In this document: in pieces, positions 2,863 through 19,743 of the stretch
Layout: every line of letters begins with the position of its first letter
Numbering within the stretch: position 1 is the first letter of the stretch
Source: Promethearchaeota archaeon
GTDB lineage: Archaea > Asgardarchaeota > Hermodarchaeia > Hermodarchaeales > Hermodarchaeaceae
Direction of reading: 5' to 3'
DNA: 64,000 nucleotides
Assembly: GCA_048939245.1 (NCBI GenBank)
Contig: JBHLPR010000003.1
Location: 1-64,000, forward strand
Program-made: the position numbers and the translations under genes
Notes under the pieces: generated by a model
The model's database searches: none
Seen by the model: only the letters and a program-made list of their open reading frames with translations
Told to the model about the DNA's origin: nothing

Positions 2863-4470
2863 ATGACGGCTTCAGAAAACTCGGTGAAATTATCAAAAGA
2901 TAAGCAACGTATGCTTCGGGGTAGCATATTAATGACGCTTAGCCCCGTATCCGCGCTATTTCTTGGCATTGTTATTAGTCTATTAATCGATGCCTACATT
3001 CCACCCCAAAATTATGCAATTTATCAATGGTTTAATGTGTTTTACACACTTTTTGGCGCGCTCATTATTTTCAGATTACCCACAGCTCTTCAATATAGAA
3101 TTGCTTCTGCAAAGGGTTCAGACCACACAGAAGAGTTACAGAAGTTGATGAAAACAAACACAATTTTGGCATTAATCTTAACGCCTTTAAGTGGAATTAT
3201 TTCATTTTTAGCTATTCCTGTCCTTCTTGACCTCTTTCTTCTAAGTGGTCAATACTTCATGGTGGATGTCCTCATATGCGCCTTGGGAATTATGGCACTT
3301 ACACTTTCTACATTTGCCGTTTCTGCTTATAAAGGATTACAGGAGTTTGAAGTCGTCGGTATTGGACAATTTGTTTCAAATCTCATAGGCCAATTAGCTG
3401 TGATAATATTAATCGTGGTGGGGGTTGGATACCTCGGAATCGTCAGCTTAGGCGTTCAGGCGCTGCTTTACAAATGGATTGTTGTTGGTGTCCTAACAAC
3501 AATGATCCTGACCGTAGCTGTTCGAAAAAGTTGGACCCTAAAAGGAAGTACTTACCCCTTCAAACCACTAGTTAAGTTCGCTGCTCCACTAATCACCTCA
3601 TTCATCTTCGTGTTTATCTTTTCTGAATTACTTGTAATGCTGTTCTTGAATCCATTCCAAGAAGAACTCGGTCTTTACGGATTTGCAGTGCGGATTGCCA
3701 ATTTTGTGAATGCTCTAACCCTCGGATTCTACGGGGCTTTAAGTTCATTTTATGCTCAATCATATGGCAAGGGAGATTGCGAAAATTTGGAGAAGGATGT
3801 TGGCTGGACAATGAAGATTTCAGTCTTTCTCTTCCTTCCAATGGTAATTGGTGCTATGATTATCTCTCCAGCTATCTTCCTAATTCTCTTTCCTAATTAC
3901 TATTGGGCTTATCAGTATTTCATAATCCTGTTGTTCAAAGTCATTCTCTTCTTATTCCGTAAGCCCTATCTTGATATCATTAACGTACGAGGTAAATCTA
4001 ATCTCGTCCTAATAATTCAAGTCATCGCTTCGATGCTCAGTGGTGTACTAATGTTCCTTGCTTTCAGCTTTGGTCCCCTGATAATGGCATATGGTCTCAT
4101 TGATAATGCGTTATTATTGGTTGTGCTAGCCTATATTTTGAATAATCTATTTATCTCGATTTTCGCTGCTATTGTAATCAAACGAGATATAGGAATCAAA
4201 TTAGGGATACGCGGAGTTCTTCCACTCCTGTTAATCGGATTTCTAATAATTCCAACGGCAATGATAATCCACTTTCTATACTTGCCCCCCCTCTTAGAGC
4301 TTGCAATTATCATTCCCCTAGGTGTAATCATCTATCTTCTACCCATTCGTTATCTACGGATAATTAGTGAAAAAGAAATTAGGAAGGCTTCACAATTTCT
4401 ACCCCGACGCTTTGCTTCTTCATTTGCAAGTATCATTGTTCGCCTTTTTGTTCGAAACTCAGACAACTAA
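2863..4470 (+). CDS. Oligosaccharide flippase (Wzx/MOP superfamily)
   Basis: 535 aa, ~14 hydrophobic segments, 'ELGLYGFAVRIANFV' Wzx-like motif, next to glycosyltransferase. Confidence 0.8.
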   Translation: MTASENSVKLSKDKQRMLRGSILMTLSPVSALFLGIVISLLIDAYIPPQNYAIYQWFNVFYTLFGALIIFRLPTALQYRIASAKGSDHTEELQKLMKTNTILALILTPLSGIISFLAIPVLLDLFLLSGQYFMVDVLICALGIMALTLSTFAVSAYKGLQEFEVVGIGQFVSNLIGQLAVIILIVVGVGYLGIVSLGVQALLYKWIVVGVLTTMILTVAVRKSWTLKGSTYPFKPLVKFAAPLITSFIFVFIFSELLVMLFLNPFQEELGLYGFAVRIANFVNALTLGFYGALSSFYAQSYGKGDCENLEKDVGWTMKISVFLFLPMVIGAMIISPAIFLILFPNYYWAYQYFIILLFKVILFLFRKPYLDIINVRGKSNLVLIIQVIASMLSGVLMFLAFSFGPLIMAYGLIDNALLLVVLAYILNNLFISIFAAIVIKRDIGIKLGIRGVLPLLLIGFLIIPTAMIIHFLYLPPLLELAIIIPLGVIIYLLPIRYLRIISEKEIRKASQFLPRRFASSFASIIVRLFVRNSDN

Positions 4471-4675
4471 TCAACAAAGCGGAACCTCATCGCTAAGATA
4501 AGCTTGACCTAACAACTTATAATGGAAAGTTAGTACCAAATTATTCAATTAATCGGTTTCGTGTAATATTACACACCTAATTTCCCCTCAGACCAAAGAA
4601 CGAAGATATTTGTATTTGATTCGACGTCGAAATTGTTAAGCAAAACTTCTAGATTGAGCTTATTATGGGATTAAC

Positions 4676-5797
4676 TTGACTCGGACAATTGTTCACCTAT
4701 CGCATTCAGGATTACCAGATGCACGTATTGAACGCATTGCTACTCTTTTACAGTCTTATGGGCGACAAGTCTTTTTAGGTCCACAAGGAAAACAAACTAC
4801 TCTCCTTTCGGACTCATTCAACACCATCATTACCACGCAGGCCTTTTCGACGCCTGGAAATCTTGGGTTACCACTCGTTTATCATCGCCTTCGACGACAG
4901 ATCAACCGAATTATCCGGCGGATTAATCCTGTTTTAATTTATGCCCATAACATTATCGCTGCCAAAATCGCGTCTGACCTTTCAGTTCCTTTTGTATATG
5001 ATGATCATGAATACTGGTCACGACAAGCAACTCTTCGTCGTATTGGGCATTTTTCAGGGGCTACTAGACTCAAAAATATTGGGCGCTACTTTTTAGCTCC
5101 TCATATCTGGCGGAAATGGGAAACTCAAATTTTAGCCTCGTCAATAGCAAACATTACTGTTAGTGAAGCAATTGCACGCGAACATAGAAGACGCGGTAAA
5201 GATTGCAGCGTAATACCAAATCTTCCCCTAATGAGGGAGTTAGTTACAATAAAAACCCCTGCACTTCAATCTGGGCAACTTCGCGCTATTAGTCTAGCTT
5301 CTGATTTCCAAGGTTTTCAAGAACACCGACAACCAGGCGACAATCTGGAGGTCTGGGAAAAAGAAGGCGGAATTTTGATGGACTGGGTTGGACGACCGCC
5401 TCCACCCAATCTTAGGTGGATACGGCATCGTCGCTGGATTGAGCCCTCTCAACTTCTCCAAGTGCTTACTTCTGATTATCAGGTTGGGTTTATTCCTTGG
5501 ACGAAAAATTGGTACCATCGATACTCACTTCCTAGTAAAACTGCATGGTATGCTCACGCGGGATTGCTCTTTGTTCTTAGTTCAGATTATGCATCGCTCA
5601 TTGAGTTTCTTCCGGAAGAGGCTTATTTCGCTTTTACCAATCCTAGTGAGCTGTGTAACATTATTCGGAAGCTGCTGAGCTTCTCGCCTGATAAGATTCT
5701 TGCCCATAGAATGCGTGTTAAAGAGTGGGCAGAAAACCATGCGATTTTAGATCAGTACAAACCTATTCTTGGTAAAATAATGAACAAGGTTGAATGA
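4676..5797 (+). CDS. Glycosyltransferase, GT4/GT-B-like
   Basis: DARIER, YAHN, PFVYDDHEYW, ITVSE, VIPN motifs. Confidence 0.75.
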   Translation: MTRTIVHLSHSGLPDARIERIATLLQSYGRQVFLGPQGKQTTLLSDSFNTIITTQAFSTPGNLGLPLVYHRLRRQINRIIRRINPVLIYAHNIIAAKIASDLSVPFVYDDHEYWSRQATLRRIGHFSGATRLKNIGRYFLAPHIWRKWETQILASSIANITVSEAIAREHRRRGKDCSVIPNLPLMRELVTIKTPALQSGQLRAISLASDFQGFQEHRQPGDNLEVWEKEGGILMDWVGRPPPPNLRWIRHRRWIEPSQLLQVLTSDYQVGFIPWTKNWYHRYSLPSKTAWYAHAGLLFVLSSDYASLIEFLPEEAYFAFTNPSELCNIIRKLLSFSPDKILAHRMRVKEWAENHAILDQYKPILGKIMNKVE

Positions 5798-5885
5798 ATT
5801 GGTTAAGTGAATTACAACTCCCAACGTACTTCGACGGTAGGCTGGGTTCAGCGAGTGTGATCTTAACCATCAGGTGGGGCGTTTT

Positions 5886-6506
5886 TTAGGGTGCGTTTAA
5901 AACCAGTTTAATTGCCTCAAAAGTCTCAGCATATTGCACTCCGATTTTCAAACCGTTTGCTCTCAAAAGGCTTTTCAGATATTCTTTATCGAAATACGTC
6001 CTCTTCTGTTCAATCTGGCTTTGATAATTCCATAATGCATCAATTTTCTTTTGGATATGTTGCTCGGATAATGCTACAAAGCAGTTTTCACGAAATTCGA
6101 TATGATTCCACGGAAGTTCATATCCGAGAATCGTACTTGATTTGAAACTCCGAAGTGCTTCGTTAGTAATTGTCTGGTGATCCTGGTGTAAATCATTCGT
6201 CGAGGGTGTGAAGACTAAATCAACCGTGTTTTTTTTATTATATCTGTAGAGAATCTCGAGAATCTGTTGGCGCAATTCAGGAAAATGCCTGGCTTTGAAA
6301 TCAAAAATCTTGGAATCAGTTATTCCGAGAACGTTCAATGATTTTTGGCATTCTTTTTTCAATTGAAGGCGCGGTGCAGAAAAAGCGAAGTATGTAATAT
6401 CACTGCCCTGTTCAACGAGTTTGGCAATTGTCGCACCAGCACCTAGTTCTCCATCGTCGGTGTGCGGACTTAGAATCAATACTTTTTGGAAGAATTGTGC
6501 GTTCAT
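5886..6506 (-). CDS. PIG-L/LmbE family N-deacetylase
   Basis: SPHTDDGELG, DLHQDH, YQSQ, YAETF motifs. Confidence 0.9.
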   Translation of the reverse strand: MNAQFFQKVLILSPHTDDGELGAGATIAKLVEQGSDITYFAFSAPRLQLKKECQKSLNVLGITDSKIFDFKARHFPELRQQILEILYRYNKKNTVDLVFTPSTNDLHQDHQTITNEALRSFKSSTILGYELPWNHIEFRENCFVALSEQHIQKKIDALWNYQSQIEQKRTYFDKEYLKSLLRANGLKIGVQYAETFEAIKLVLNAP

Positions 6507-7558
6507 TCTATTCTCCTACCTCCTTTGTGAAACAGTTGATCCATATATCGCACCATCCTCCTTCCATAATCAATTTTCGTTTTATACCTTCTTACATCTT
6601 CTTCGGTGAGCTCACCAAGCGCTAGCCGGATGGCTAAGTATGGTGCAATGAGATCGGATTGATAAATAAAAGTGGAGACGCGTGGGTTGATTTCAATCAA
6701 CTTATCCTCTATGAATTGAAGGTTCACACAATAGCTAAGAGGAATGGCTTTCAGAATCACGCGTGTCTGTTCTACTAGAGCTGGCTGTTGTACTAATTGA
6801 CCGCGGACGATGACCCCCCACCGTGCCTGTTCCACCGTTTTCACTGTGGTCAATAATTCCCGACCTTCCAAAGCCAGTGTGTCCGTCGTCCGTTCCATCC
6901 CCTCAATGAACTCCATTAGCAGTAACTTGGGGAAATTGGTCTGATTTGAAAAAATAGTTTGGATTTCTTCTAAGGAGATGTATTTGCTGGTTGGTTTCTT
7001 TTCCATTAGATGCTGTCTTCGATTTACCCTTGAGTCGATGATGCGCACACCACGGCTCCCTTTACCGATATGAGGTTTGAAAATCACAGGGTTTTCTGGG
7101 TATCCTAATTTTTCAGCTGCATTAAGAAATTCGTCGAGAGAAGCCACACTAATATACCGTGGTAGGGTAATTTTGGTTTTTGAATGTAATCTTTCATACA
7201 TTCTATATTTGTTATTGGACAGCACAATGGGTTCTGGATCTGAAACAAGTACCTTCGTTCCAAAGCCTTCGATTTCTTCTTTGTTCAAGGCTAATGGGAG
7301 AACTTCATTACTTGATTCGGGGAACAATACATCCGGGCTTTCTTTTTCTATAATTTCAAGCATTCTAGGAATATACTCGGGTGAGTCTCCTGGTGGGACT
7401 TTGTAAAACCTTTTAGTTAAAAATCGTCCTACAGCTTCCTCGTCCATATCAGTTCCAATAACTTCTATAGATCGTTCTCCGTTATTTTGCAGCATGTGAA
7501 TAAGCGTCGATGCTCCCGGACACCCACATGCCGTAAGGACTACCTTTAACTTTCTCAT
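6503..7558 (-). CDS. ATP-grasp ligase (CarB-like, polysaccharide-cluster type)
   Basis: NNKY, FKPHIGKGSRG, MEFIEG, IEINPR; 4-nt overlap with deacetylase gene. Confidence 0.85.
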   Translation of the reverse strand: MRKLKVVLTACGCPGASTLIHMLQNNGERSIEVIGTDMDEEAVGRFLTKRFYKVPPGDSPEYIPRMLEIIEKESPDVLFPESSNEVLPLALNKEEIEGFGTKVLVSDPEPIVLSNNKYRMYERLHSKTKITLPRYISVASLDEFLNAAEKLGYPENPVIFKPHIGKGSRGVRIIDSRVNRRQHLMEKKPTSKYISLEEIQTIFSNQTNFPKLLLMEFIEGMERTTDTLALEGRELLTTVKTVEQARWGVIVRGQLVQQPALVEQTRVILKAIPLSYCVNLQFIEDKLIEINPRVSTFIYQSDLIAPYLAIRLALGELTEEDVRRYKTKIDYGRRMVRYMDQLFHKGGRRIE

Positions 7559-7663
7559 GCCGTTGTCAACTCAAAAATCCCAATCTAGTTGTAATTTCTC
7601 TTCTTGAGGGTAGTTATGGTCTTAATGCGTAATCGGGTTCAAGATACTTCTATTTTGCCATTC

Positions 7664-8161
7664 TTAACTTGCCTTATATTCTGTAGTAATTTTGAATAGT
7701 TCGTGGGGGATGAGGTATGGGTCTTTAGCTCTTTCAAACATGAGTGATAGGTGGTAACTGAGAACGCCTTCTGTTTGGCTCATCACTTCTCCTACGACGC
7801 GTTGCATCTCTTCTGTGGATGGAAAAGCGCCTTTTGCGTGTATGTTGTGTGCGCCTGTTACTATCCAAACCAGATAGAAATACGGGGATTTTGAAATTAC
7901 TTCTGCGACCCTTTTAGTCAAGGCCGGTTCGCATTGCACGCCCATCGTAATAAAAATGGGGAGTTCTAATTTTCCTGGGTTGATAATGACACTGTATCCT
8001 TGGATTATTCCTTGCTTCTCTAACTTGGAAATGTGGTAGCGAACAGTTGCTTCGCTAACCTTCATGAGTTTCGCAATCCGGCGGTTTGAGGCGCGGGCGT
8101 TTTGTGAAAGGAGTTTAATTAGTTTGACTTCGAAACTGGAGAAGCCTTTCTTTCGTTTCAT
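7664..8161 (-). CDS. Lrp/AsnC family transcriptional regulator
   Basis: LSQNARASNRRIAKLMKVSEATV HTH, VTGAHN RAM motif; start moved to ATG 8161 (GGTG SD 6 nt upstream). Confidence 0.9.
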   Translation of the reverse strand: MKRKKGFSSFEVKLIKLLSQNARASNRRIAKLMKVSEATVRYHISKLEKQGIIQGYSVIINPGKLELPIFITMGVQCEPALTKRVAEVISKSPYFYLVWIVTGAHNIHAKGAFPSTEEMQRVVGEVMSQTEGVLSYHLSLMFERAKDPYLIPHELFKITTEYKAS

Positions 8162-8348
8162 TATTATCACCACATCAAAATGCGAGAAAAACTGGGGACA
8201 AGTTATCGCATTTAGGGATTTAAATCTATTCTCTTTCCCTTAATTAGTTAGCGAATCGCTGAAAATACATCAAATAATGAGGTATTTGTTTCAGAAACCT
8301 TTTTAACAATACCACTAAGGGTGTGATGACTCAACTCGGTGATTCCGA

Positions 8349-9062
8349 ATGAATAATGTACCAAACACGCTCATCGAAAAAATCGAAGAAAGTAAACGAA
8401 TAATTGCTAATGCTATTGAAAAATACCCGAATATCGCGGTGGCTTGCAGTTTTGGTAAGGACAGTATGGTCGTTCTTTCATTGGCTCGTGAAGTCAAACC
8501 CGATATTCCAGTTTTCTCGATTTTAACTCCTATGAAGCCAGCAGAGACGTTCAAATTTAAGGAATTCGTTGAAGACAAATGGAAGTTGGATCTCACTGTA
8601 TACATGGCCCAAGAGGAACCAATCGAAGGTCTTTGGAAGACAGATCCTGACCGATGTTGTCAGATTTTCAAAGTGGAACCTACCCTAAGAGCACTTGACG
8701 GTTTGGACGCTTGGATAACCGGGTTGCGACGTACCGAGGGTCGTACTCGCACTGATTATGAACCGGTAGAACCCTGTAATGGCACAATGAAAATTAATCC
8801 GATTCTTGATTGGACGGAGACGGATATCTGGCGGTACACCGCAGTATATGATGTGCCTGTGAACCCCGCTTACCGGAAGGGCTATCGGAGCCTGGGCTGT
8901 TCTCCTTGCACCAAAGTCGTTGGGGATGACGAATCTGAACGGGCTGGTCGCTGGCAAGGCACTAGTAAGTGTGGCGGAGAATGCGGTATCCATACGATGC
9001 ACAAGAATGGAAATGGCGGGAAAATTGCACCCAGGAGTCAAACATGGGCCACTACCAGTTAA
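8349..9062 (+). CDS. cysH: APS/PAPS reductase (CysH family, CC...CxxC Fe-S type)
   Basis: SFGKDS, RCCQIFKVEP, TGLRR, GYRSLGCSPCT, ERAGRW, ECGIH. Confidence 0.85.
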   Translation: MNNVPNTLIEKIEESKRIIANAIEKYPNIAVACSFGKDSMVVLSLAREVKPDIPVFSILTPMKPAETFKFKEFVEDKWKLDLTVYMAQEEPIEGLWKTDPDRCCQIFKVEPTLRALDGLDAWITGLRRTEGRTRTDYEPVEPCNGTMKINPILDWTETDIWRYTAVYDVPVNPAYRKGYRSLGCSPCTKVVGDDESERAGRWQGTSKCGGECGIHTMHKNGNGGKIAPRSQTWATTS

Positions 9063-10270
9063 TTTGTCCTGCCTGTAAAACCGAATTTACAGGTTACACC
9101 CTTTCTTGCCATTGCTCAACCTTACTCCGTACTGTGTATCCTAAACCCCTTGAACCCAGATCGCTGTATGGGTTGTGGAGGTTCCTTGACTGGTTACCCT
9201 GTAAGACTCCCCTTGATACAAAGGCCGGTTCTATCACCTACAAAAGCCACGGTTTAGCGAAAGAGCTCGGACTGAAAAATCTGTATCTATCGTTTACAGG
9301 CTACTGGCCAGAGAGGAATGCTCAAAATCTTACCGGCTCGTTTAAGGACTTGGAATCTAATCCGACTGTAGCGTGGGCACGAGAGAATGGGGTTAATGCA
9401 TTAACAATTGCCTCTGCAGGAAATACCGCACGTGCGTTTGGTCATATAGCCAATCAAGTCGGATTTGATGTGTACCTCTTGGTGCCAGAATCTTATCTTG
9501 ATATGCTCTGGACCCCTGAACCACCTACAGAGAATATCCATCTCCTTGCTGTAACAGGTGATTATTTCGAAACGATTGAGATTGCCAATGAATTTTGTGA
9601 AACGAAAGGCATACAAAATGAAGGCGGTGCAAAAAATGTCGCTCGACGGGATGGAATGGGCACCGTAATGCTGGATGCAGCATTCACCATGAAACGTATG
9701 CCAAATCACTATTTTCAAGCCATCGGATCAGGTACAGGCGCAATCGCTTGCTGGGAAATGGCGTCTAGACTTCAGAATCATGGTTGGGATGGCAATCCCA
9801 TTCTTCATCTCTCCCAAAACGATCCATTCGTACCCATTTATAATGCCTGGAACGCTGGACGCCGACAAGTCCTTCCTGAAGACATGTTAAATGCAGAAGA
9901 ACGCATTAAAAACATGCATGCGGTGGTTCTGTCTAATCGTAATCCGCCCTATAGTGTTGGAGGTGGCGTTTACGATGCCTTATCAGATACTCACGGCAAT
10001 GTATATTCCATCTCGAATACCGAAGCTAGAGAAGCTGGTAAATTATTTATCGCTCTAGAAGAAATCGATATTCTCCCTGCCGCTGAAGTTGCGGTGGCAT
10101 CCCTTATCCAAGCAGTGGAATACAACAATGTATCAAAGAATGATTATATTCTTCTAAATGTCACCGGGGGCGGCTTAAATCGTATTAAAGAAGACTTTGG
10201 GTTCCATCGAATCGAACCCGAAGGGTATATCCGTGATTCAACACAGCAATTAGACAGTATCATCACCTAA
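9044..10270 (+). CDS. Cysteate synthase (PLP, threonine synthase family)
   Basis: GYWPER, GSFKDLE, ASAGNTARAF, GGAKNVARRDGMGTV, LSNRNPPY are characteristic of methanogen cysteate synthase; start at ATG 9044 after AGGAG. Confidence 0.85.
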   Translation: MGHYQLICPACKTEFTGYTLSCHCSTLLRTVYPKPLEPRSLYGLWRFLDWLPCKTPLDTKAGSITYKSHGLAKELGLKNLYLSFTGYWPERNAQNLTGSFKDLESNPTVAWARENGVNALTIASAGNTARAFGHIANQVGFDVYLLVPESYLDMLWTPEPPTENIHLLAVTGDYFETIEIANEFCETKGIQNEGGAKNVARRDGMGTVMLDAAFTMKRMPNHYFQAIGSGTGAIACWEMASRLQNHGWDGNPILHLSQNDPFVPIYNAWNAGRRQVLPEDMLNAEERIKNMHAVVLSNRNPPYSVGGGVYDALSDTHGNVYSISNTEAREAGKLFIALEEIDILPAAEVAVASLIQAVEYNNVSKNDYILLNVTGGGLNRIKEDFGFHRIEPEGYIRDSTQQLDSIIT

Positions 10271-10297
10271 GAAAACGTAAAATTAAGATTTCGATGG

Positions 10298-11443
10298 GTG
10301 ACTCCCGTGAATATCTCAGAAGAAATAATCACATCATTAAAGAACATCGGTGTAAATTTTTTCGTTACCTATCCCTGTGCTAAAATTCGTCATTTGTATA
10401 ATCTAACCCATTCCAATTTTCCAAGTGTTCCAATAGTGAAGGAAGAAGAGGGCGTCGGTATTTGTGCAGGTGCGGCTCTTGCCGGAGCGAAGCCCGCTAT
10501 GTTAATTCAAAGTACGGGTTTGGGAAATATGGTCAACGCGTTGTGTTCGCTGACGATAACTTATCAATTTCCTTTACTAATTCTTGCAAGCTGGAGAGGC
10601 GTCTATCATGAGAAAATTACCGCGCAAATTCCATTGGGAACCAGGCTTCCCAAAATAATCGAGGCAATGGAGATACCTTATCATATCATCAGGCAAAGGA
10701 ATGATTTACCCAATCTTACTCGAGCTGCTACGGCGGCATATGAGAGAAATGAAATACATATTGTGTTACTTAGTCCACAGTTGTGGGAAAATAAAGTAAC
10801 TGACGACAAACCCCCGCAAATAACGGAATTTTCTGGTATCAAAGTCGGAGAGGAAACGCTGCCAATTAATATGAAACGGGTGTTCACGCGCTTCGAGGTT
10901 CTCCAAAAACTGACTTCCTTTCTTGCGGACAAGTTAGTGATCTGTAATATTGGTTTACCTTCAAGAGAGCTGTACCAGGTAAAGCATCAACCATCGAATT
11001 TCTATATGCTGGGGAGCCTTGGGCTAGCCTCCTCAATTGGGCTTGGAGTCGCCTTATCTTCCTCAAACCAGGTTATCGTCATTGATGGCGATGGAAGCCT
11101 TCTCTCCAATCTTGGAACATTAGCAACCATTGCTCAAGAAAACCCAGCCAACCTAACCATCCTTGCCATCGACAATAGTGTCCATGGCTCTACTGGCAAT
11201 CAAACCACGGCGACAAGCAAAACTGTTGATCTCGCCCTTGCCGCGAAAGGATTGGGTATCGAAAGAACCTATCGTGCTACAACACAGGATGAACTTCTCT
11301 CTATCCTTTCGAAGTTGTCTGGAGGTCCGAATTTTGTACACATTCCTACACGTCCAGGCAATATGTCGGTTCCTACTATTCCTTTAACTCCTTTTGAAAT
11401 CCGAGATGGCTTCATGACGAAAATCATGCCATCGCAACCCTAA
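10298..11443 (+). CDS. comDE: Sulfopyruvate decarboxylase, fused alpha/beta (ComD-ComE)
   Basis: EEEGVGICAGA, QSTGLGN, SWRG, NIGLPSRELY, NFYMLGSLG, DGDGS, DNSVHGSTGNQ (TPP enzyme). Confidence 0.85.
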   Translation: MTPVNISEEIITSLKNIGVNFFVTYPCAKIRHLYNLTHSNFPSVPIVKEEEGVGICAGAALAGAKPAMLIQSTGLGNMVNALCSLTITYQFPLLILASWRGVYHEKITAQIPLGTRLPKIIEAMEIPYHIIRQRNDLPNLTRAATAAYERNEIHIVLLSPQLWENKVTDDKPPQITEFSGIKVGEETLPINMKRVFTRFEVLQKLTSFLADKLVICNIGLPSRELYQVKHQPSNFYMLGSLGLASSIGLGVALSSSNQVIVIDGDGSLLSNLGTLATIAQENPANLTILAIDNSVHGSTGNQTTATSKTVDLALAAKGLGIERTYRATTQDELLSILSKLSGGPNFVHIPTRPGNMSVPTIPLTPFEIRDGFMTKIMPSQP

Positions 11444-11481
11444 GCCATTTATAATGTAGGATGATATGGCAATCCACCTAT

Positions 11482-11500
11482 GGGCTCATTTCTTGAGCCC
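11482..11500. other. Intergenic hairpin GGGCTCA-tttct-TGAGCCC
   Basis: Perfect 7-bp inverted repeat between comDE and GT4 gene. Confidence 0.4.
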
Positions 11501-11537
11501 CCAGATAAGCGAATAGCCACAAAGAGGCTAGTTCTTC

Positions 11538-12656
11538 ATGAAAATTCTTCACCTTTCTGATAGTGGGCTGCCTGATATACGCATTGAACGCGCGGCGTTA
11601 TTTGCCGCAAATAAGGGATGGGAAGTAGTCTTTGCTGGTGGTCGACCAATCACCGGACAAATTTTCGGGGTCTTTAAAAAAGTGCATTATCGTCATTGGG
11701 CTCCATCCGAAAAAACAGGATTTCCTCGATCCTTAAAGAAGTTACAGCAATGGCTTCGGCGCCTTCTTCGTGAAGAAGAGCCAGACCTCATTCATGCTCA
11801 TGATATCTTTGCAGGGAAGGTTGCGTTAGAAGTTGGTCATCCATTTGTATATGATGATCACGAGATTTGGGGTTCTCGAATCAGTTTTCAAGGCTCAATG
11901 GCATTAAAGCGGAATCGCACACTTCTTCGTCGATTTGGATTATGGTATGCCATTCGAAACTGGAAGAAATGGGACTCAGAAATTCTTCATTCAGTACCAA
12001 CCATTGCAGTTAGCAATGATATTGCACAATTATATCGAAAAGTTCAACCACAAACCTTTGTTATCCCTAATGTTCCAACATCTCACGAAATAGCGATGAT
12101 ACCTCCTAATCGCAATCGGGATGACACCTTCCGGGTTGCTTATATTTCCCGGCATAATCTTCCACTTGATAATCGAAGGGATACTGAAGCGCTTCGTCTT
12201 TGGTTAGAGAATCGGTTTGGTGCCACACTTGTTTTTGTCGGACCTAAGGTCATTGGCACTGAGGAAGTTGAAAATCATGGCTTTGTCAGCCACGAGCAGA
12301 TGCTAAATATAATAGCCGATTGCGATCTTGCGCTAATGGGTCAAAAAACTCCTGTTCCCGTATATTCCTATCAAAATCGATTTCCTCTTTTTCTTCATTC
12401 CGGACTAAAAACCATCGTGCCTATTTCAAAGGTAATAGAGGTGAAATTCTGCAATCAACATGCGGTTGGATGGTCATGGACTACCGCTGCTGGCCTCAAT
12501 GAATTGCTCACACAACTTTCTGAAATCTATTGGGCAGATATACCCGCTTGGAATCAAGAGAAATCCCGTGTCCGCGAAGTAGCTCAAAAACATCTAACTT
12601 GGACACAATTTGAGGGTCAGCTGGAACAAGCGTACGAAGCTGCATTAGCCAACTAA
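11538..12656 (+). CDS. Glycosyltransferase, GT4/GT-B-like (paralog of 4676..5797)
   Basis: HLSDSGLPDIRIER, HAHD, PFVYDDHEIW, VIPN. Confidence 0.75.
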   Translation: MKILHLSDSGLPDIRIERAALFAANKGWEVVFAGGRPITGQIFGVFKKVHYRHWAPSEKTGFPRSLKKLQQWLRRLLREEEPDLIHAHDIFAGKVALEVGHPFVYDDHEIWGSRISFQGSMALKRNRTLLRRFGLWYAIRNWKKWDSEILHSVPTIAVSNDIAQLYRKVQPQTFVIPNVPTSHEIAMIPPNRNRDDTFRVAYISRHNLPLDNRRDTEALRLWLENRFGATLVFVGPKVIGTEEVENHGFVSHEQMLNIIADCDLALMGQKTPVPVYSYQNRFPLFLHSGLKTIVPISKVIEVKFCNQHAVGWSWTTAAGLNELLTQLSEIYWADIPAWNQEKSRVREVAQKHLTWTQFEGQLEQAYEAALAN

Positions 12657-13568
12657 TAATTGAGCAATCGCAATCGCTTGTGATGCAGCTTGTTCCGCAT
12701 CTTCTGCAAACAAATAAGTAACGGGTTCGATGCCCACAAGGCCCTTATCAATCACTGCATCAATATCCTTCTCCTTTGATAGGACATCCCGAATCGCTTG
12801 CAATAGCGCTTCATCAGTCTCTCGCCCACCTTGAACAGCTTCGCGATTCACCTGAATATAACGAAGCTTAAGTTTAGTAAGGACACGCTCGACATCGGGA
12901 AGATACTTCAAGACAATAGCGGCTTGCTGTCTAGAACTCGTTTCCTGAATTAATAGTAATATTTTGGACAAATGCGTGGAAGCTCCAAATTCTGGTCCAG
13001 TAAAAGTATGGGCTTTCTGATCCACTATCCCAATACGGCTTGGAAATCCTGCAACATCATCGATATCTTGGGCATTAGGTATGCTCATTACAAGTTGGGA
13101 TTGAACCTGAGGAATAAGCCGAGTAAACTCCGAGGCATCTTCAAGTAGTTGAGCCCCTCGAGTTAAACTATTGAGTACTCCTATTCGGAATTTTGGTGTC
13201 ATTCCTTCTCCGCAAACCTTGCATGTCGCTAGTTCAGGATTTTCAGATCGGTGAAGCTGGCAAAGCAGCCCCCCAATTTTTTGATTCCTGCAAAACTCAC
13301 ATAATAACGCAATACTTTCTTCAAGAGGAATTTGCTCTTTTGAAAGGTGCTCAGCGAGGGTCACAGCCATTCGTTGGATACCTGGTGTATAGTACTTTTC
13401 AAAGCGCTTGAGTTGCTGGAGACTCCTTGAGACACTTGCTTGAGTGACTCCAAGGGCATTGGCAACTTGGTTTTGTGTAAAACCATAATCTTGAACGAGT
13501 TTATGGCTTACTAAGGCTCGGAGTGCCGGAAGCAATTGAACAACCATAATTTCACAAGGTGGCCGCAC
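12645..13568 (-). CDS. HTH-ThiN fusion (ThiR-like regulator / thiamine-phosphate synthase family)
   Basis: MRPPCE..LPALRALV..TQNQVANALGVTQASVS HTH; LIPQVQ, DVAGFPSRI, PEFGASTH, GIEP (ThiN domain). Confidence 0.8.
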   Translation of the reverse strand: MRPPCEIMVVQLLPALRALVSHKLVQDYGFTQNQVANALGVTQASVSRSLQQLKRFEKYYTPGIQRMAVTLAEHLSKEQIPLEESIALLCEFCRNQKIGGLLCQLHRSENPELATCKVCGEGMTPKFRIGVLNSLTRGAQLLEDASEFTRLIPQVQSQLVMSIPNAQDIDDVAGFPSRIGIVDQKAHTFTGPEFGASTHLSKILLLIQETSSRQQAAIVLKYLPDVERVLTKLKLRYIQVNREAVQGGRETDEALLQAIRDVLSKEKDIDAVIDKGLVGIEPVTYLFAEDAEQAASQAIAIAQLLVG

Positions 13569-13738: not shown

Positions 13739-14455
13739 TTGAATCTGGTGGGTTGTGTGGAAGCGTATCTTGCAGGAAAACCAATTATCAGCACCACAGA
13801 TTGGCCGTCCAAGGTTGCGTGTGTTGTCTTTTTTGTAGGGTGTAATTTGCGTTGCAGATTCTGTTTTAATGCTCCCCTTCTCGAATTTAGCGACCAATTT
13901 AAAGTAAATTTAGAACTTCTTTATCCTGAATTGGAAGCCAATCACTTTCTTATTGATGGTGTAATTGCAACTGGTGGGGAACCAACTCTTCAGCCAGAAG
14001 CACTTAGAACTCTCGCCGAGTGGGTTCATAAGCAGGGGATGGAATTTGGCTTAATGACAAATGGCACGAAACCTGATGTGGTTCAGCAGCTCGTTGAAAT
14101 GAACCTAATTGATTATATTGCTGTGGATATTAAGACGGTGCCAATCCAAGAGCAATACAATCGTGTGACCCAATCTAGCGGACACATACTGAATCAGGTG
14201 CAAGACACGGTCGAGCTTCTTTTGTCTTCGAATATCGACTATGAATTTCGGACTACTCTTGTCCCCACTTTAATTGATAGCTTCGATCAACTAGATCTGA
14301 TACGTGAATGGGTGGGACCGAAACATTATGTTCTTCAATATTTTCGTCCCAGTAAGACGGTCATAGATTCGACTCTCACTTCATCATTTAGTAAGAATCA
14401 ACTGGATCAATTTCAACAATACGCACAAAAACACGGCATAACTACTCGATTTTAA
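13739..14455 (+). CDS. nrdG: Anaerobic ribonucleotide reductase activating enzyme (radical SAM)
   Basis: STTDWP, GCNLRCRFCFN, TGGEPTLQ, TNGT, VDIK, YEFRTT. Confidence 0.9.
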   Translation: MNLVGCVEAYLAGKPIISTTDWPSKVACVVFFVGCNLRCRFCFNAPLLEFSDQFKVNLELLYPELEANHFLIDGVIATGGEPTLQPEALRTLAEWVHKQGMEFGLMTNGTKPDVVQQLVEMNLIDYIAVDIKTVPIQEQYNRVTQSSGHILNQVQDTVELLLSSNIDYEFRTTLVPTLIDSFDQLDLIREWVGPKHYVLQYFRPSKTVIDSTLTSSFSKNQLDQFQQYAQKHGITTRF

Positions 14456-17397: not shown

Positions 17398-19743
17398 TTA
17401 CTGAGTGGATTGAGTGCTGGAGGGAATACGAATCTGTTCTTGTTGAGAAGAAGTTGATGAAAGGTCGCTTGTTAATGGTGCGGGTCCGTTTAACACACGA
17501 TGCCTTCGTTTCAGTTCCTCGCGTTTACCTGCGTTCCATCCGGATACATTCTGATAGTAGCCAGTAATTCGGCTAAACCAATCAATATCTGTATGTCCAC
17601 ATTTTGGACACACATCTAGTAAACCACTTGCAGTATTATGGCACCGTTTGCACACGGATAAATCACGAGTGTAACTATAATAGCCTAACTGGGTATTCAT
17701 AGCAATCCGTTGATTCAATTTCATTAATGCATTTGTATCAGGTGCAGCTTCTCCAAGGAACACATGGAATATGTTACCACCGGATAGTAGAGGAAACGCC
17801 TTCTCCTCAATTGCTATTTTCTTAGCCAAGGAGACCTGTGAGTCGTAATTAACCATAAACCCATTAGTGTAATAAGCAGGAACAGCTGTTCGCCCTGCTT
17901 CTTCCAATTGGTTACGCCAGTTTGATATGTCTCCCTTAACAACTGATTTTGCTTGGCCATTATAATGAAGTAGGTCCATTATCGCTAAACGTGTGGAGCA
18001 TGATTCTGCAGGAGTTCGAGCAACAGCGAATGGCAATCCAGTTTCTTCACTGTAAATCTTCCGAATATGTTCCATCTCTGCAATGACGCGTAATCCAAAT
18101 CGCAAAGCTTCTTGACTCTCATGTAGTTGAGTTCCTGTGTGGTATTGGACCATCTCATTAACTCCAACAAAGCCGAAAATCGGTGATGAGTTGAGAATGT
18201 CAAAAAGTGGTGGAGCTGTGTCACCATTAAATCGTGGTTGTTGGTTGAGAAATGGAAGCATACCATTATCCAATTGCTGTTTTATGAACTTGCGTTTAAT
18301 CATCAGCACACGTCTGGCTAACTCCATTTGTCCGCGAAGGTTCTCAAATAATACAGTATCATCCCCATTCGCGATATACGCCAAACGTGGCAAATTCAAT
18401 GTTACGACCTGAAGGCCACCCATAGAGAAATGCGCACCATCTTCAAACATGATCTTCTTTTGAAATTCTTCAGAACTAATATCCTCCTCAAGTCGAAAAG
18501 CGCAACACTGGTAACAATCTTGTCCTTCGGAATCCCTGTATCCCGGAATTACATTATCGAAGTAACTACTACCAAATTTTGCGGAGAGTTTAGTGGCTAA
18601 ATACATGTTTTCTTCATGTTCGCTTTTAGTGAAATACTCTCGACGAACTCGAATTTCGGGTTTGGGGAAGCTAAACATCTTTCCCCACGCATCCCCTTCG
18701 AGATAGGTCTCAAGTATAGTTGTCATGAATGTTCGAGCCTCATCCTCGTACTCCCCATATGAATCCGGTCCAACTCTTCCACGATAGACTACAGGGGCAT
18801 CACGCCAGATTTTGGGAATGCCTGATTCAAGTTGAATGCTCGAGAAGACTAGTTGCCCGCCTCGAGAGACGTATGTTTCGTTGGCTTCGAAGAGGATTGT
18901 TTGAGCAAGCTGTTTAATCTCTCGAGGAGACTTTCCGCGGAGGAAAGGCGCCAAGAATACATTAAAATTGAAGAGTCCTTGACCGCCGGCGCAGTTTGTT
19001 TGGCCGGCTGCCAAGACTTTGATGAGGTGCAATATAGCCACCGTTGGGTACGACGCTGGTTTAGCAACTGCTGTTCTTTCACCAAGACCATCACACATCA
19101 ATCCGTATTTGAAGAAGTATCTTGCATCGTAGTCTGCACAGAAGGGTCGGGTCCCAAAGTATTCAAGGTCATGTATATGAATATCTCCTGCAAGATGCGC
19201 GTCAGAAAGTTCAGGTGGGAGCATTAGAAGGTATGCTTCCTTACAAAGCCGATCTGCAATCTTTTTATGGATTGTTTCAGGGTTAGGCTGCATATTCGCA
19301 TTTTCATGGGCCTCATAGCCATTTCCGCCAATGATATGACTAAAGTCCCACATAGGAACACCAACACGGGTCAAGGCATTACGATAAACTGCAAATCGTG
19401 GGTCCTGCTTTGCTTTTTCAAGAAGTACTTGGTTTTGTATTTCTCGGATTAGAGGAGCACTGACAAAGGGAAGCTGCATTTGCTTGATTCGCCGCTCTAC
19501 CTCATTTGCGATGCCCTTGGCTTCCTTTTGACTAATTGAGGGGATTTTAAAAAGTTCCTGGACTAACAGCGTTTCTCGGACGAGGGCATCAACAATTTTC
19601 TTGGGATTCCAACTGCGAATTAATGCGTCGCTGGTGCGTACCATAGGCATGCCCGCTGCCTCTTTGCGAACCGCTTGAATCCAACGATCTAGTGATAACG
19701 TTCTCTGCGTTGAATCTGTTGCTCTCCTCCTACGCCGGGCCAT
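17398..19743 (-). CDS. nrdD: Anaerobic (class III) ribonucleoside-triphosphate reductase with ATP-cone
   Basis: ATP-cone (WNPKKIVDALVRET..SAPLIRE), HIHDL, QCC finger loop, TPAES, YYTN, CKRC/CPKC, SRITGY glycyl-radical motif. Confidence 0.95.
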   Translation of the reverse strand: MARRRRRATDSTQRTLSLDRWIQAVRKEAAGMPMVRTSDALIRSWNPKKIVDALVRETLLVQELFKIPSISQKEAKGIANEVERRIKQMQLPFVSAPLIREIQNQVLLEKAKQDPRFAVYRNALTRVGVPMWDFSHIIGGNGYEAHENANMQPNPETIHKKIADRLCKEAYLLMLPPELSDAHLAGDIHIHDLEYFGTRPFCADYDARYFFKYGLMCDGLGERTAVAKPASYPTVAILHLIKVLAAGQTNCAGGQGLFNFNVFLAPFLRGKSPREIKQLAQTILFEANETYVSRGGQLVFSSIQLESGIPKIWRDAPVVYRGRVGPDSYGEYEDEARTFMTTILETYLEGDAWGKMFSFPKPEIRVRREYFTKSEHEENMYLATKLSAKFGSSYFDNVIPGYRDSEGQDCYQCCAFRLEEDISSEEFQKKIMFEDGAHFSMGGLQVVTLNLPRLAYIANGDDTVLFENLRGQMELARRVLMIKRKFIKQQLDNGMLPFLNQQPRFNGDTAPPLFDILNSSPIFGFVGVNEMVQYHTGTQLHESQEALRFGLRVIAEMEHIRKIYSEETGLPFAVARTPAESCSTRLAIMDLLHYNGQAKSVVKGDISNWRNQLEEAGRTAVPAYYTNGFMVNYDSQVSLAKKIAIEEKAFPLLSGGNIFHVFLGEAAPDTNALMKLNQRIAMNTQLGYYSYTRDLSVCKRCHNTASGLLDVCPKCGHTDIDWFSRITGYYQNVSGWNAGKREELKRRHRVLNGPAPLTSDLSSTSSQQEQIRIPSSTQSTQ

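Follow-up and report, generated by a model that had tools for sequence, protein, structure and literature searches.

Phosphonoglycans are made by a route comprising phosphoenolpyruvate (PEP) mutase, phosphonopyruvate decarboxylase, an aminotransferase and a cytidylyltransferase, and bacillithiol and mycothiol are made by a glycosyltransferase of family GT4 (BshA/MshA), a deacetylase of the PIG-L family (BshB/MshB) and a ligase. An ATP-grasp glucuronamide ligase is known from Campylobacter jejuni. The type 1 capsule of Staphylococcus aureus carries taurine as an amide on N-acetylgalactosaminuronic acid (PMC12043029), and N-glycans of Sulfolobus contain sulfoquinovose, for which Agl3 adds sulfite directly to the UDP-sugar (PMC4388408). 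The type 2 (Methanosarcina-type) route to coenzyme M (CoM) runs through cysteate synthase, an aminotransferase, ComDE and MMP16/ComF (PMC12068725), and the CoM pathway of Xanthobacter uses ComA/XcbB, XcbC, XcbD and XcbE, of which XcbC is the phosphosulfolactate-eliminating enzyme (PMC9457059). Described here is a nine-gene block at positions 2863 to 12656 of the window, i.e. the whole stretch of 64,000 nt analysed (contig JBHLPR010000003.1 of a Promethearchaeota archaeon), in which sulfonate genes of CoM type stand between genes of glycan synthesis. The block is best explained as two joined parts, an operon for sulfonate supply and a conjugation cassette of three genes, at the edge of a surface-glycan island that is hypervariable. 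Judging from the sequences, a rare ligase cassette that recruited CoM-type genes would attach a sulfonate by an amide bond to an amino or uronic sugar conjugate; the probability of this reading is put at about one half.

The own genome (G000; genomes, families and loci are designated by G, f and L numbers) amounts to 2.52 Mb in 122 contigs and is 88% complete. The family sample has 19 genomes, 15 of genus g1 (14 and G000) and four of the sister genus g2, and phylum-wide scans for cysteate synthase and ComDE covered 400 Asgard genomes. All nine open reading frames (ORFs) were found where a preliminary description of this DNA had placed them and match the families it had named, and base composition is even across the block. 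On the plus strand lie the three supply genes. CysH (8349-9062) scores 205.6 bits with PRK02090 (cut-off 154) and has the motifs CC...CSPC (CC...CxxC) and ECGIH, by which this adenosine 5'-phosphosulfate (APS)/3'-phosphoadenosine 5'-phosphosulfate reductase is assigned to the Fe-S APS-reductase type. Cysteate synthase (8969-10270) is ThrC-like, of the Methanosarcina type, and a single copy in the genome; it reaches 519.2 bits vs 324.9 with TIGR03844. The match spans model positions 1-395 of 398 and starts at ORF residue 29, and the true start is probably near 9053. The fused sulfopyruvate decarboxylase ComDE (10298-11443) scores 188.5 vs 147.95 with TIGR03845 (alpha) and, by a slim margin, 223.6 vs 221.5 with TIGR03846 (beta).

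Cysteate synthase and ComDE thus pass the equivalog models of the type 2 route (PMC12068725), and their order is that of Mcr-bearing Asgard genomes. Two of these, G122 and G127, with 3-4 McrA-like genes, have cysteate synthase and ComDE followed by HdrC, HdrB, HdrA/MvhD and MMP16 (TIGR03287, 510 bits vs 364). The same layout occurs in G123, and G398 has a NiFe hydrogenase ahead of cysteate synthase-ComDE and MMP16 directly after ComDE. In contrast, the operon described here has no Hdr gene, and CysH, Lrp, ATP-grasp, PIG-L and GT4 genes are attached instead. The preliminary description had proposed a genome search for mcr and comF. McrA (PF02249) has no match in the own genome at its 88% completeness, and COG1900/PF01837, which includes both the CoM synthase MMP16/ComF and L-ASST (PMC12068725), is absent from 19/19 family genomes. 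On these grounds the sulfonate genes here are probably not for canonical CoM synthesis. ComA is also absent from 19/19 family genomes. Cysteate synthase is rare, with matches in 17/400 Asgard genomes (15/400 above the cut-off), and ComDE-like genes, with 165/400 (89/400 above the cut-off), are common and far more widespread than cysteate synthase or Mcr; CoM-type metabolism may be much wider than Mcr in Asgard archaea. Most genomes of family f20 have two COG1900 paralogues.

The remaining genes of interest form the cassette. ATP-grasp#1 (6503-7558, minus strand) is a PylC-like carboxylate-amine ligase (ATPgrasp_Ter 53 bits, PylC-like_N 33 bits). Its stop overlaps by 4 nt with the start of the gene for a PIG-L/LmbE-family N-deacetylase (5886-6506, minus strand; PF02585 53 bits), and the two genes are predicted to be translationally coupled. 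The best NCBIfam match of the deacetylase is BshB1 (TIGR04001), at 56.8 bits with a cut-off of 182.5, which places it in the superfamily only; its relatives in the PDB are diacetylchitobiose deacetylases. The third member, GT4b (11538-12656, plus strand), is a lineage-restricted GT4-like transferase (Glyco_transf_4 36.7 bits) with no sequence match in the PDB, and the nearest Atlas clusters carry the name glycosyltransferase. PDB sequence searches with ATP-grasp#1, PIG-L, GT4b and ComDE gave superfamily-level matches or none.

Orthologues of ATP-grasp#1 (E below 1e-60) were found in 8 of the 246 genomes of the phylum sampled for it, in families f1, f10 and f12 only, which are the three families that have ComDE yet almost never COG1900. 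PIG-L orthologues adjoin the ligase gene in the congeners G100 and G101 and in G059, G083 and G086, and in the last three a GT4b-like gene is directly beside it as well. The cassette of PIG-L, ATP-grasp#1 and GT4b-like genes recurs in three Asgard families, the own and two others. In an exhaustive search, the nearest relatives of ATP-grasp#1 outside its own cluster were 44-47% identical. Those with 47% identity (G067 and G075) lie inside an operon of an aminotransferase, the ATP-grasp, an ASL-family lyase and ComA (298 bits), which a second CysH-like reductase gene adjoins in both genomes; another relative (46% identity) abuts a CysK/CapA-like pyridoxal phosphate enzyme. The best NCBIfam match of the lyase is XcbC (2e-46 vs 3e-25 for argH). 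The sister clade of ATP-grasp#1 thus shares with the Xanthobacter CoM pathway (PMC9457059) an operon with ComA and an XcbC-like lyase; it differs in that no equivalents of XcbD and XcbE were identified in the ComA operon, which has the ATP-grasp and the aminotransferase instead and lies outside the window. Its genes suggest a different, bacterial-type route to a C3 sulfonate. The operon occupies L081 6257-11794 in G067 and L087 8752-14120 in G075, both genomes without Mcr or COG1900.

Family f10 was sampled with 22 genomes, of which G067 is closed, and COG1900 was found in 0/22. One island of this family, with LPG-synthase-like, GT4, GT2 and 185-aa genes, has supply genes that vary by genome. 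In G067 and G076, neither of which has COG1900 or McrA, CysH and cysteate synthase-ComDE are flanked on one side by GT2, the 185-aa gene, GT4, an LPG-synthase-like gene and ManC. The other flank holds a flippase, a CMP-transferase and a 543-aa Glyphos_transf-like gene in G067, and an NMT1/SsuA-type ABC importer with an ATP-grasp in G076. The same island in G059 has a full NMT1/SsuA-type importer where its relatives hold CysH-cysteate synthase-ComDE, and PIG-L/ATP-grasp#1 are flanked there by a UDP-sugar dehydrogenase-like gene and a flippase. In G086, importer genes, the 185-aa gene and GT2 surround the cassette, and cysteate synthase and ComDE are on other short contigs. The cassette or its ligase clade therefore occurs in three contexts, with CysH-cysteate synthase-ComDE, with the NMT1/SsuA importer and with the ComA operon, and so appears from gene context to be coupled with three sources of sulfonate, namely de novo synthesis from phosphoserine, import and a ComA-based route. 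The ComDE copies from glycan islands of g1 and of f10 fall in separate, well supported clades of the tree, and the two placements hence arose independently. Where ComDE of f10 has no adjoining cysteate synthase, it lies 7 nt downstream of an M20 amidohydrolase gene (CpsA/DoeB2-like), as in G058 (L058 7989-10355).

The preliminary description had also asked whether sulfonate and glycan genes stay together in relatives, and in several congeners they do. The block of PIG-L, ATP-grasp and Lrp and, divergently, CysH, cysteate synthase, ComDE, GT4b and a ThiN-domain gene is kept in G100 and G101 (56-77% identity), and in G096, G098 and G099 it is retained as far as the contig ends. The genes left of PIG-L vary between genomes, G100 and G101 included, and the block is therefore regarded as the edge of a hypervariable glycan island. 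The Lrp/AsnC-family regulator (7664-8173, minus strand; HTH_24 and AsnC_trans_reg) is encoded upstream of ATP-grasp#1/PIG-L on the same strand and divergently from CysH, with which it is always present in the genus. Cysteate synthase was found in 6/14 other genomes of the genus, and together with CysH it is gained or lost jointly with Lrp, ATP-grasp#1 and PIG-L. The divergent intergenic region (8174-8348) has promoter-like elements in both directions which are kept in an alignment of six genomes, namely a TCAGnAnnnTTTTTAA box and a GGTGAT motif ahead of the ATG on the CysH side and a ATAAAAATCT box on the Lrp side. Congeners without cysteate synthase and CysH always have glycan genes next to ComDE: in G106 NeuB, a CMP-transferase, a 549-aa Glyphos_transf-like gene, a VimE-like deacetylase, ATP-grasp#2, PHP, ComDE and GT4b; in G095 two epimerases, a flippase, GT2, GT4b and ComDE; and in G097 a flippase, UDP-GlcNAc 2-epimerase, GT4 and ComDE. 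Hardly any member of the GT4b family occurs outside the genus, and of the about 24 homologues at least 12 are on the same contig as a ComDE homologue. Apparent frameshifts in CysH, cysteate synthase and ComDE of G105 had been considered as decay after loss of the cassette, but the breaks are scaffold gaps of 10 N and this genome is uninformative.

From these family identities, gene orders and associations we infer the sulfonate, its acceptor and the co-regulation by Lrp. CysH would yield sulfite, which cysteate synthase would combine with phosphoserine to L-cysteate, and a general (housekeeping) aminotransferase and ComDE would convert cysteate to sulfoacetaldehyde. The same transaminase could then aminate sulfoacetaldehyde, so that the net conversion would be cysteate to taurine and CO2. 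As one transaminase would suffice to carry the amino group over from cysteate, taurine is the most economical candidate, with cysteate and sulfoacetate as the alternatives. ATP-grasp#1, as a putative sulfonate amide ligase, would form the amide between the sulfonate and a sugar prepared or transferred by PIG-L and GT4b, either from taurine and a uronic acid or from cysteate or sulfoacetate and the amine freed by PIG-L. GT4b would act as the transferase, the flippase would export the lipid-linked product, and Lrp would co-regulate both divergent transcription units. Of the sulfonated surface glycan proposed in the preliminary description, the genomic link of sulfonate genes with ATP-grasp, PIG-L and GT4 has held up; the sulfonate, the surface polymer as acceptor and the part of ComDE are put forward here conditionally.

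The proposed product resembles the uronic acid glycans decorated with amides, as an ATP-grasp carboxylate-amine ligase is encoded in a glycan locus, a small sulfonated amine is a plausible substituent, and a UDP-sugar dehydrogenase-like gene stands beside the cassette in G059. It differs in being archaeal and in the origin of the sulfonate, which would either be imported or be built in the cell by CoM-type enzymes with sulfite as the starting point; the system is known from its genes. With Sulfolobus sulfoquinovose it would share an archaeal glycan and a C-SO3 group derived from sulfite; here, a separate C2/C3 sulfonate would be made first and then ligated. With phosphonoglycans the locus shares a homologous thiamine pyrophosphate-dependent decarboxylase in a glycan locus and a C2 aldehyde bearing an acidic group. 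The parallel to phosphonoglycans drawn in the preliminary description stands as an analogy, as PEP mutase (TIGR02320) is absent from 19/19 family genomes. ComDE also stays below the phosphonopyruvate decarboxylase model TIGR03297 (214.3 vs 312.5), and a phosphonate role for it was ruled out on both counts. Since a sulfonate cannot form a phosphodiester, it must be attached as an amide or a glycoside.

Several observations weigh against this reading. The relatives are incomplete metagenome-assembled genomes akin to one another, so that the counts are not independent, and the support consists of gene context. No aminotransferase, dehydrogenase or reductase acting on sulfoacetaldehyde is encoded in any of the loci. 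No sulfate-activating enzyme (ATP sulfurylase, APS kinase or CysD) was found in the own genome, which is 88% complete; G101 has a fragment of a sulfate-activation gene at a contig end. Cysteate synthase is present and ATP-grasp#1 absent in G085, G062, G063 and G076. Conversely, G110 (81% complete) has ATP-grasp#1 adjoined by a GT4a orthologue, and no sulfonate genes were detected in it. GT4b probably has its own promoter, as suggested by the conserved TATA-like box ATTTATAA at 11447-11454 in the ComDE-GT4b spacer (11444-11537); the box is kept in six genomes and the remaining spacer diverges. ComDE adjoins the ThiN gene in 13/15 genomes of the genus, including those without cysteate synthase or the cassette, and most other ComDE loci across the phylum have no glycan neighbours. 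In the tree, the ComDE clade of the genus is sister to ComDEs linked with genes for an SsuA-like and a SAMP-like protein, a pair which tracks ComDE in the genus, and ComDE may therefore serve another pathway.

The last point leads to the alternative that survives best, although it is unlikely: CysH, cysteate synthase and ComDE would feed a soluble CoM or a CoM-like thiol-type sulfonate without MMP16, and the glycan neighbours would be a positional accident at a variable island's edge. Thiolation would be brought about by the SsuA-like protein and the MoaD/SAMP-like sulfur carrier or by a slow uncatalysed reaction with sulfide. MMP16 mutants are reported to go on making CoM in the presence of sulfide (PMC12068725), several HdrA/HdrB homologues are encoded in the own genome, and nearly all genomes of the genus have ComDE, whether or not they have cysteate synthase or the cassette. 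In four other lineages, the sister-clade ComDEs are directly followed by two convergent genes, one for an SsuA-like (NMT1_2) protein of the cytoplasm and one of MoaD/SAMP-like type, and one of these lineages also has a cysteate-synthase-like gene and ATPase/GTPase/COG2000 genes. The own genome has kept the pair on contig C4 (10477-11712, L054; other loci are L050, L051, L052, L053, L066 and L067). The SsuA-like protein has no signal peptide and scores 102 bits with SsuA_fam, under the cut-off. Like ComDE, its orthologue is present in 12/14 other g1 genomes (13/15 with G000) and in 0/4 of g2, and it was further found in 3/3 genomes of f3, 6/6 of f14 and 0/22 of f10. From this context, the pair is a candidate for a ComF-independent step on sulfoacetaldehyde. 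What the soluble route leaves unexplained is the joint gain and loss of cysteate synthase and CysH with Lrp, ATP-grasp and PIG-L, as well as the tie of the ATP-grasp clade to two other routes of sulfonate supply. Furthermore, the own genome yielded no CoM-using enzyme, and in f10 CysH-cysteate synthase-ComDE lies in a glycan island, yet the family has neither the SsuA-like orthologue nor COG1900.

Other roles considered for these neighbours of ComDE were rejected. A thiamine role does not fit the NMT1_2 protein, whose best NCBIfam match is the SsuA family and not THI5 and which has no signal peptide, and the neighbour of ThiS fold is MoaD/SAMP-like. A supposed second ComDE paralogue beside the SsuA-like gene on C4 is an ORF of 380 aa unrelated to ComDE. 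Many SsuA-like orthologues of f14 and f20 are reported with one in-frame TAA, TAG or TGA within the match, which may be real or an alignment run-on. Separately, one co-directional string in the closed f14 genome G116 (L068 7718-12455) encodes a sugar-phosphate nucleotidyltransferase, a CDP-alcohol phosphatidyltransferase (archaetidylinositol-phosphate-synthase-like), ComD, ComE, ComA and ComB, which could hint at a head group or solute that carries a sulfonate in phosphodiester linkage.

Somewhat less probable again, and really a variant of the amide-linked conjugate, is that the product of GT4b, PIG-L and ATP-grasp is a glucosamine conjugate, small and soluble and assembled along the lines of bacillithiol and mycothiol, and not a surface polymer. 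The sulfonate would then be the aglycone (isethionate or sulfolactate for malate) or the acyl group (cysteate for cysteine), i.e. it would replace malate, inositol or cysteine. The enzyme classes are those of BshA/MshA (GT4), BshB/MshB (PIG-L) and the ligase, here in a travelling cassette that moves as a unit across three families, and BshB1 is the best, if far sub-threshold, match of the deacetylase. The genes surrounding the trio in G083 match none of the annotated glycan genes compared, and ComDE and GT4b are adjacent in both orders in the genus. Against these stand the ATP-grasp fold of the ligase, which is neither of BshC nor of MshC type, and the lack of an isethionate-making reductase in the locus. 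Moreover, the trio is surrounded by flippase, GT2 and GT4 genes in G000, G059 and G086. The specific form in which the cassette makes a bacillithiol-like glucosamine conjugate with isethionate or sulfolactate as aglycone and cysteine or cysteate as acyl group, which would give Asgard lineages with ComDE and without CoM synthase a novel type of small anionic thiol or redox buffer, is improbable on the present gene content.

Equally doubtful is adjacency without shared function, in which taurine, isethionate or cysteate from the operon would serve as an osmolyte or as a metabolite related to nutrients and ATP-grasp/PIG-L would be an ordinary glycan acyl-swap module using a common amino acid: modules of a deacetylase and an ATP-grasp (VimE-like/ATP-grasp#2/PHP) are common in archaeal glycan loci without sulfonate genes, ComDE occurs in many unrelated contexts and has just two independent placements in glycan islands, but the rarity of ATP-grasp#1, which ATP-grasp#2 does not share, and its three separate links with sulfonate supply speak against this view. 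ATP-grasp#2, found near ComDE in G106 and G076, was rejected as an additional link because of the great size of its family and because its cassette is common without ComDE. This cassette of a VimE-like or polysaccharide deacetylase-like protein, ATP-grasp#2 (ATPgrasp_Ter, >4600 proteins) and a PHP phosphoesterase is recurrent in glycan loci and was seen in Methanothrix, in Helarchaeota, on another archaeal contig and in this genus (L036 5237-8222; L075, L076 and L077).

At the left end of the block, on the plus strand, are a MOP-family (Wzx/AglR-like) flippase (2863-4470; MatE 38 bits, Polysacc_synt 30 bits and Polysacc_synt_3, all above the cut-off) and the GT-B glycosyltransferase-like GT4a (4676-5797; Glyco_transf_4 32.8 bits vs 28.5). 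Flippase orthologues (54-68% identity) are restricted to some congeners, and the gene is a member of the variable part of the glycan island. GT4a and GT4b both have the Glyco_transf_4 N-domain above the cut-off, and the Glycos_transf_1 C-domain is unmatched in both. They had been described as paralogues that bracket the block; they are indeed distant paralogues (26% identity over the full length, E 1e-30), but other genes stand left of PIG-L in G100 and G101, and a bracket that includes GT4a and the flippase is thus not conserved. At the right end, the ThiN-domain gene (12645-13568), convergent with GT4b and kept beside ComDE across the genus, encodes an N-terminal helix-turn-helix in a ThiR-like architecture. 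Further on, at 13739-14455, a 238-aa protein with Radical_SAM and Fer4_12 is encoded 3 kb from nrdD (17398-19743), and its size and domains fit an NrdG-type activase.

To our knowledge, no system of this kind has been described, and the literature searches found none; among the papers searched, none draws a connection between ATP-grasp enzymes and cysteate or between the making of glycans and sulfopyruvate decarboxylase. The sugars reported for Prometheoarchaeum in a study of the Asgard glycoproteome include none with a sulfonate. Cysteate synthase and ComDE are taken to indicate CoM synthesis and hence methane or alkane metabolism, but in at least three families these genes seem to have been co-opted for another purpose. 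If the sulfonated glycoconjugate is real, comDE in metagenomes would be evidence for CoM only with caution, and the rare ATP-grasp clade would gain a testable function. There would exist a sulfonate counterpart of phosphonoglycans, and the closest archaeal relatives of eukaryotes would have a new anionic surface chemistry.

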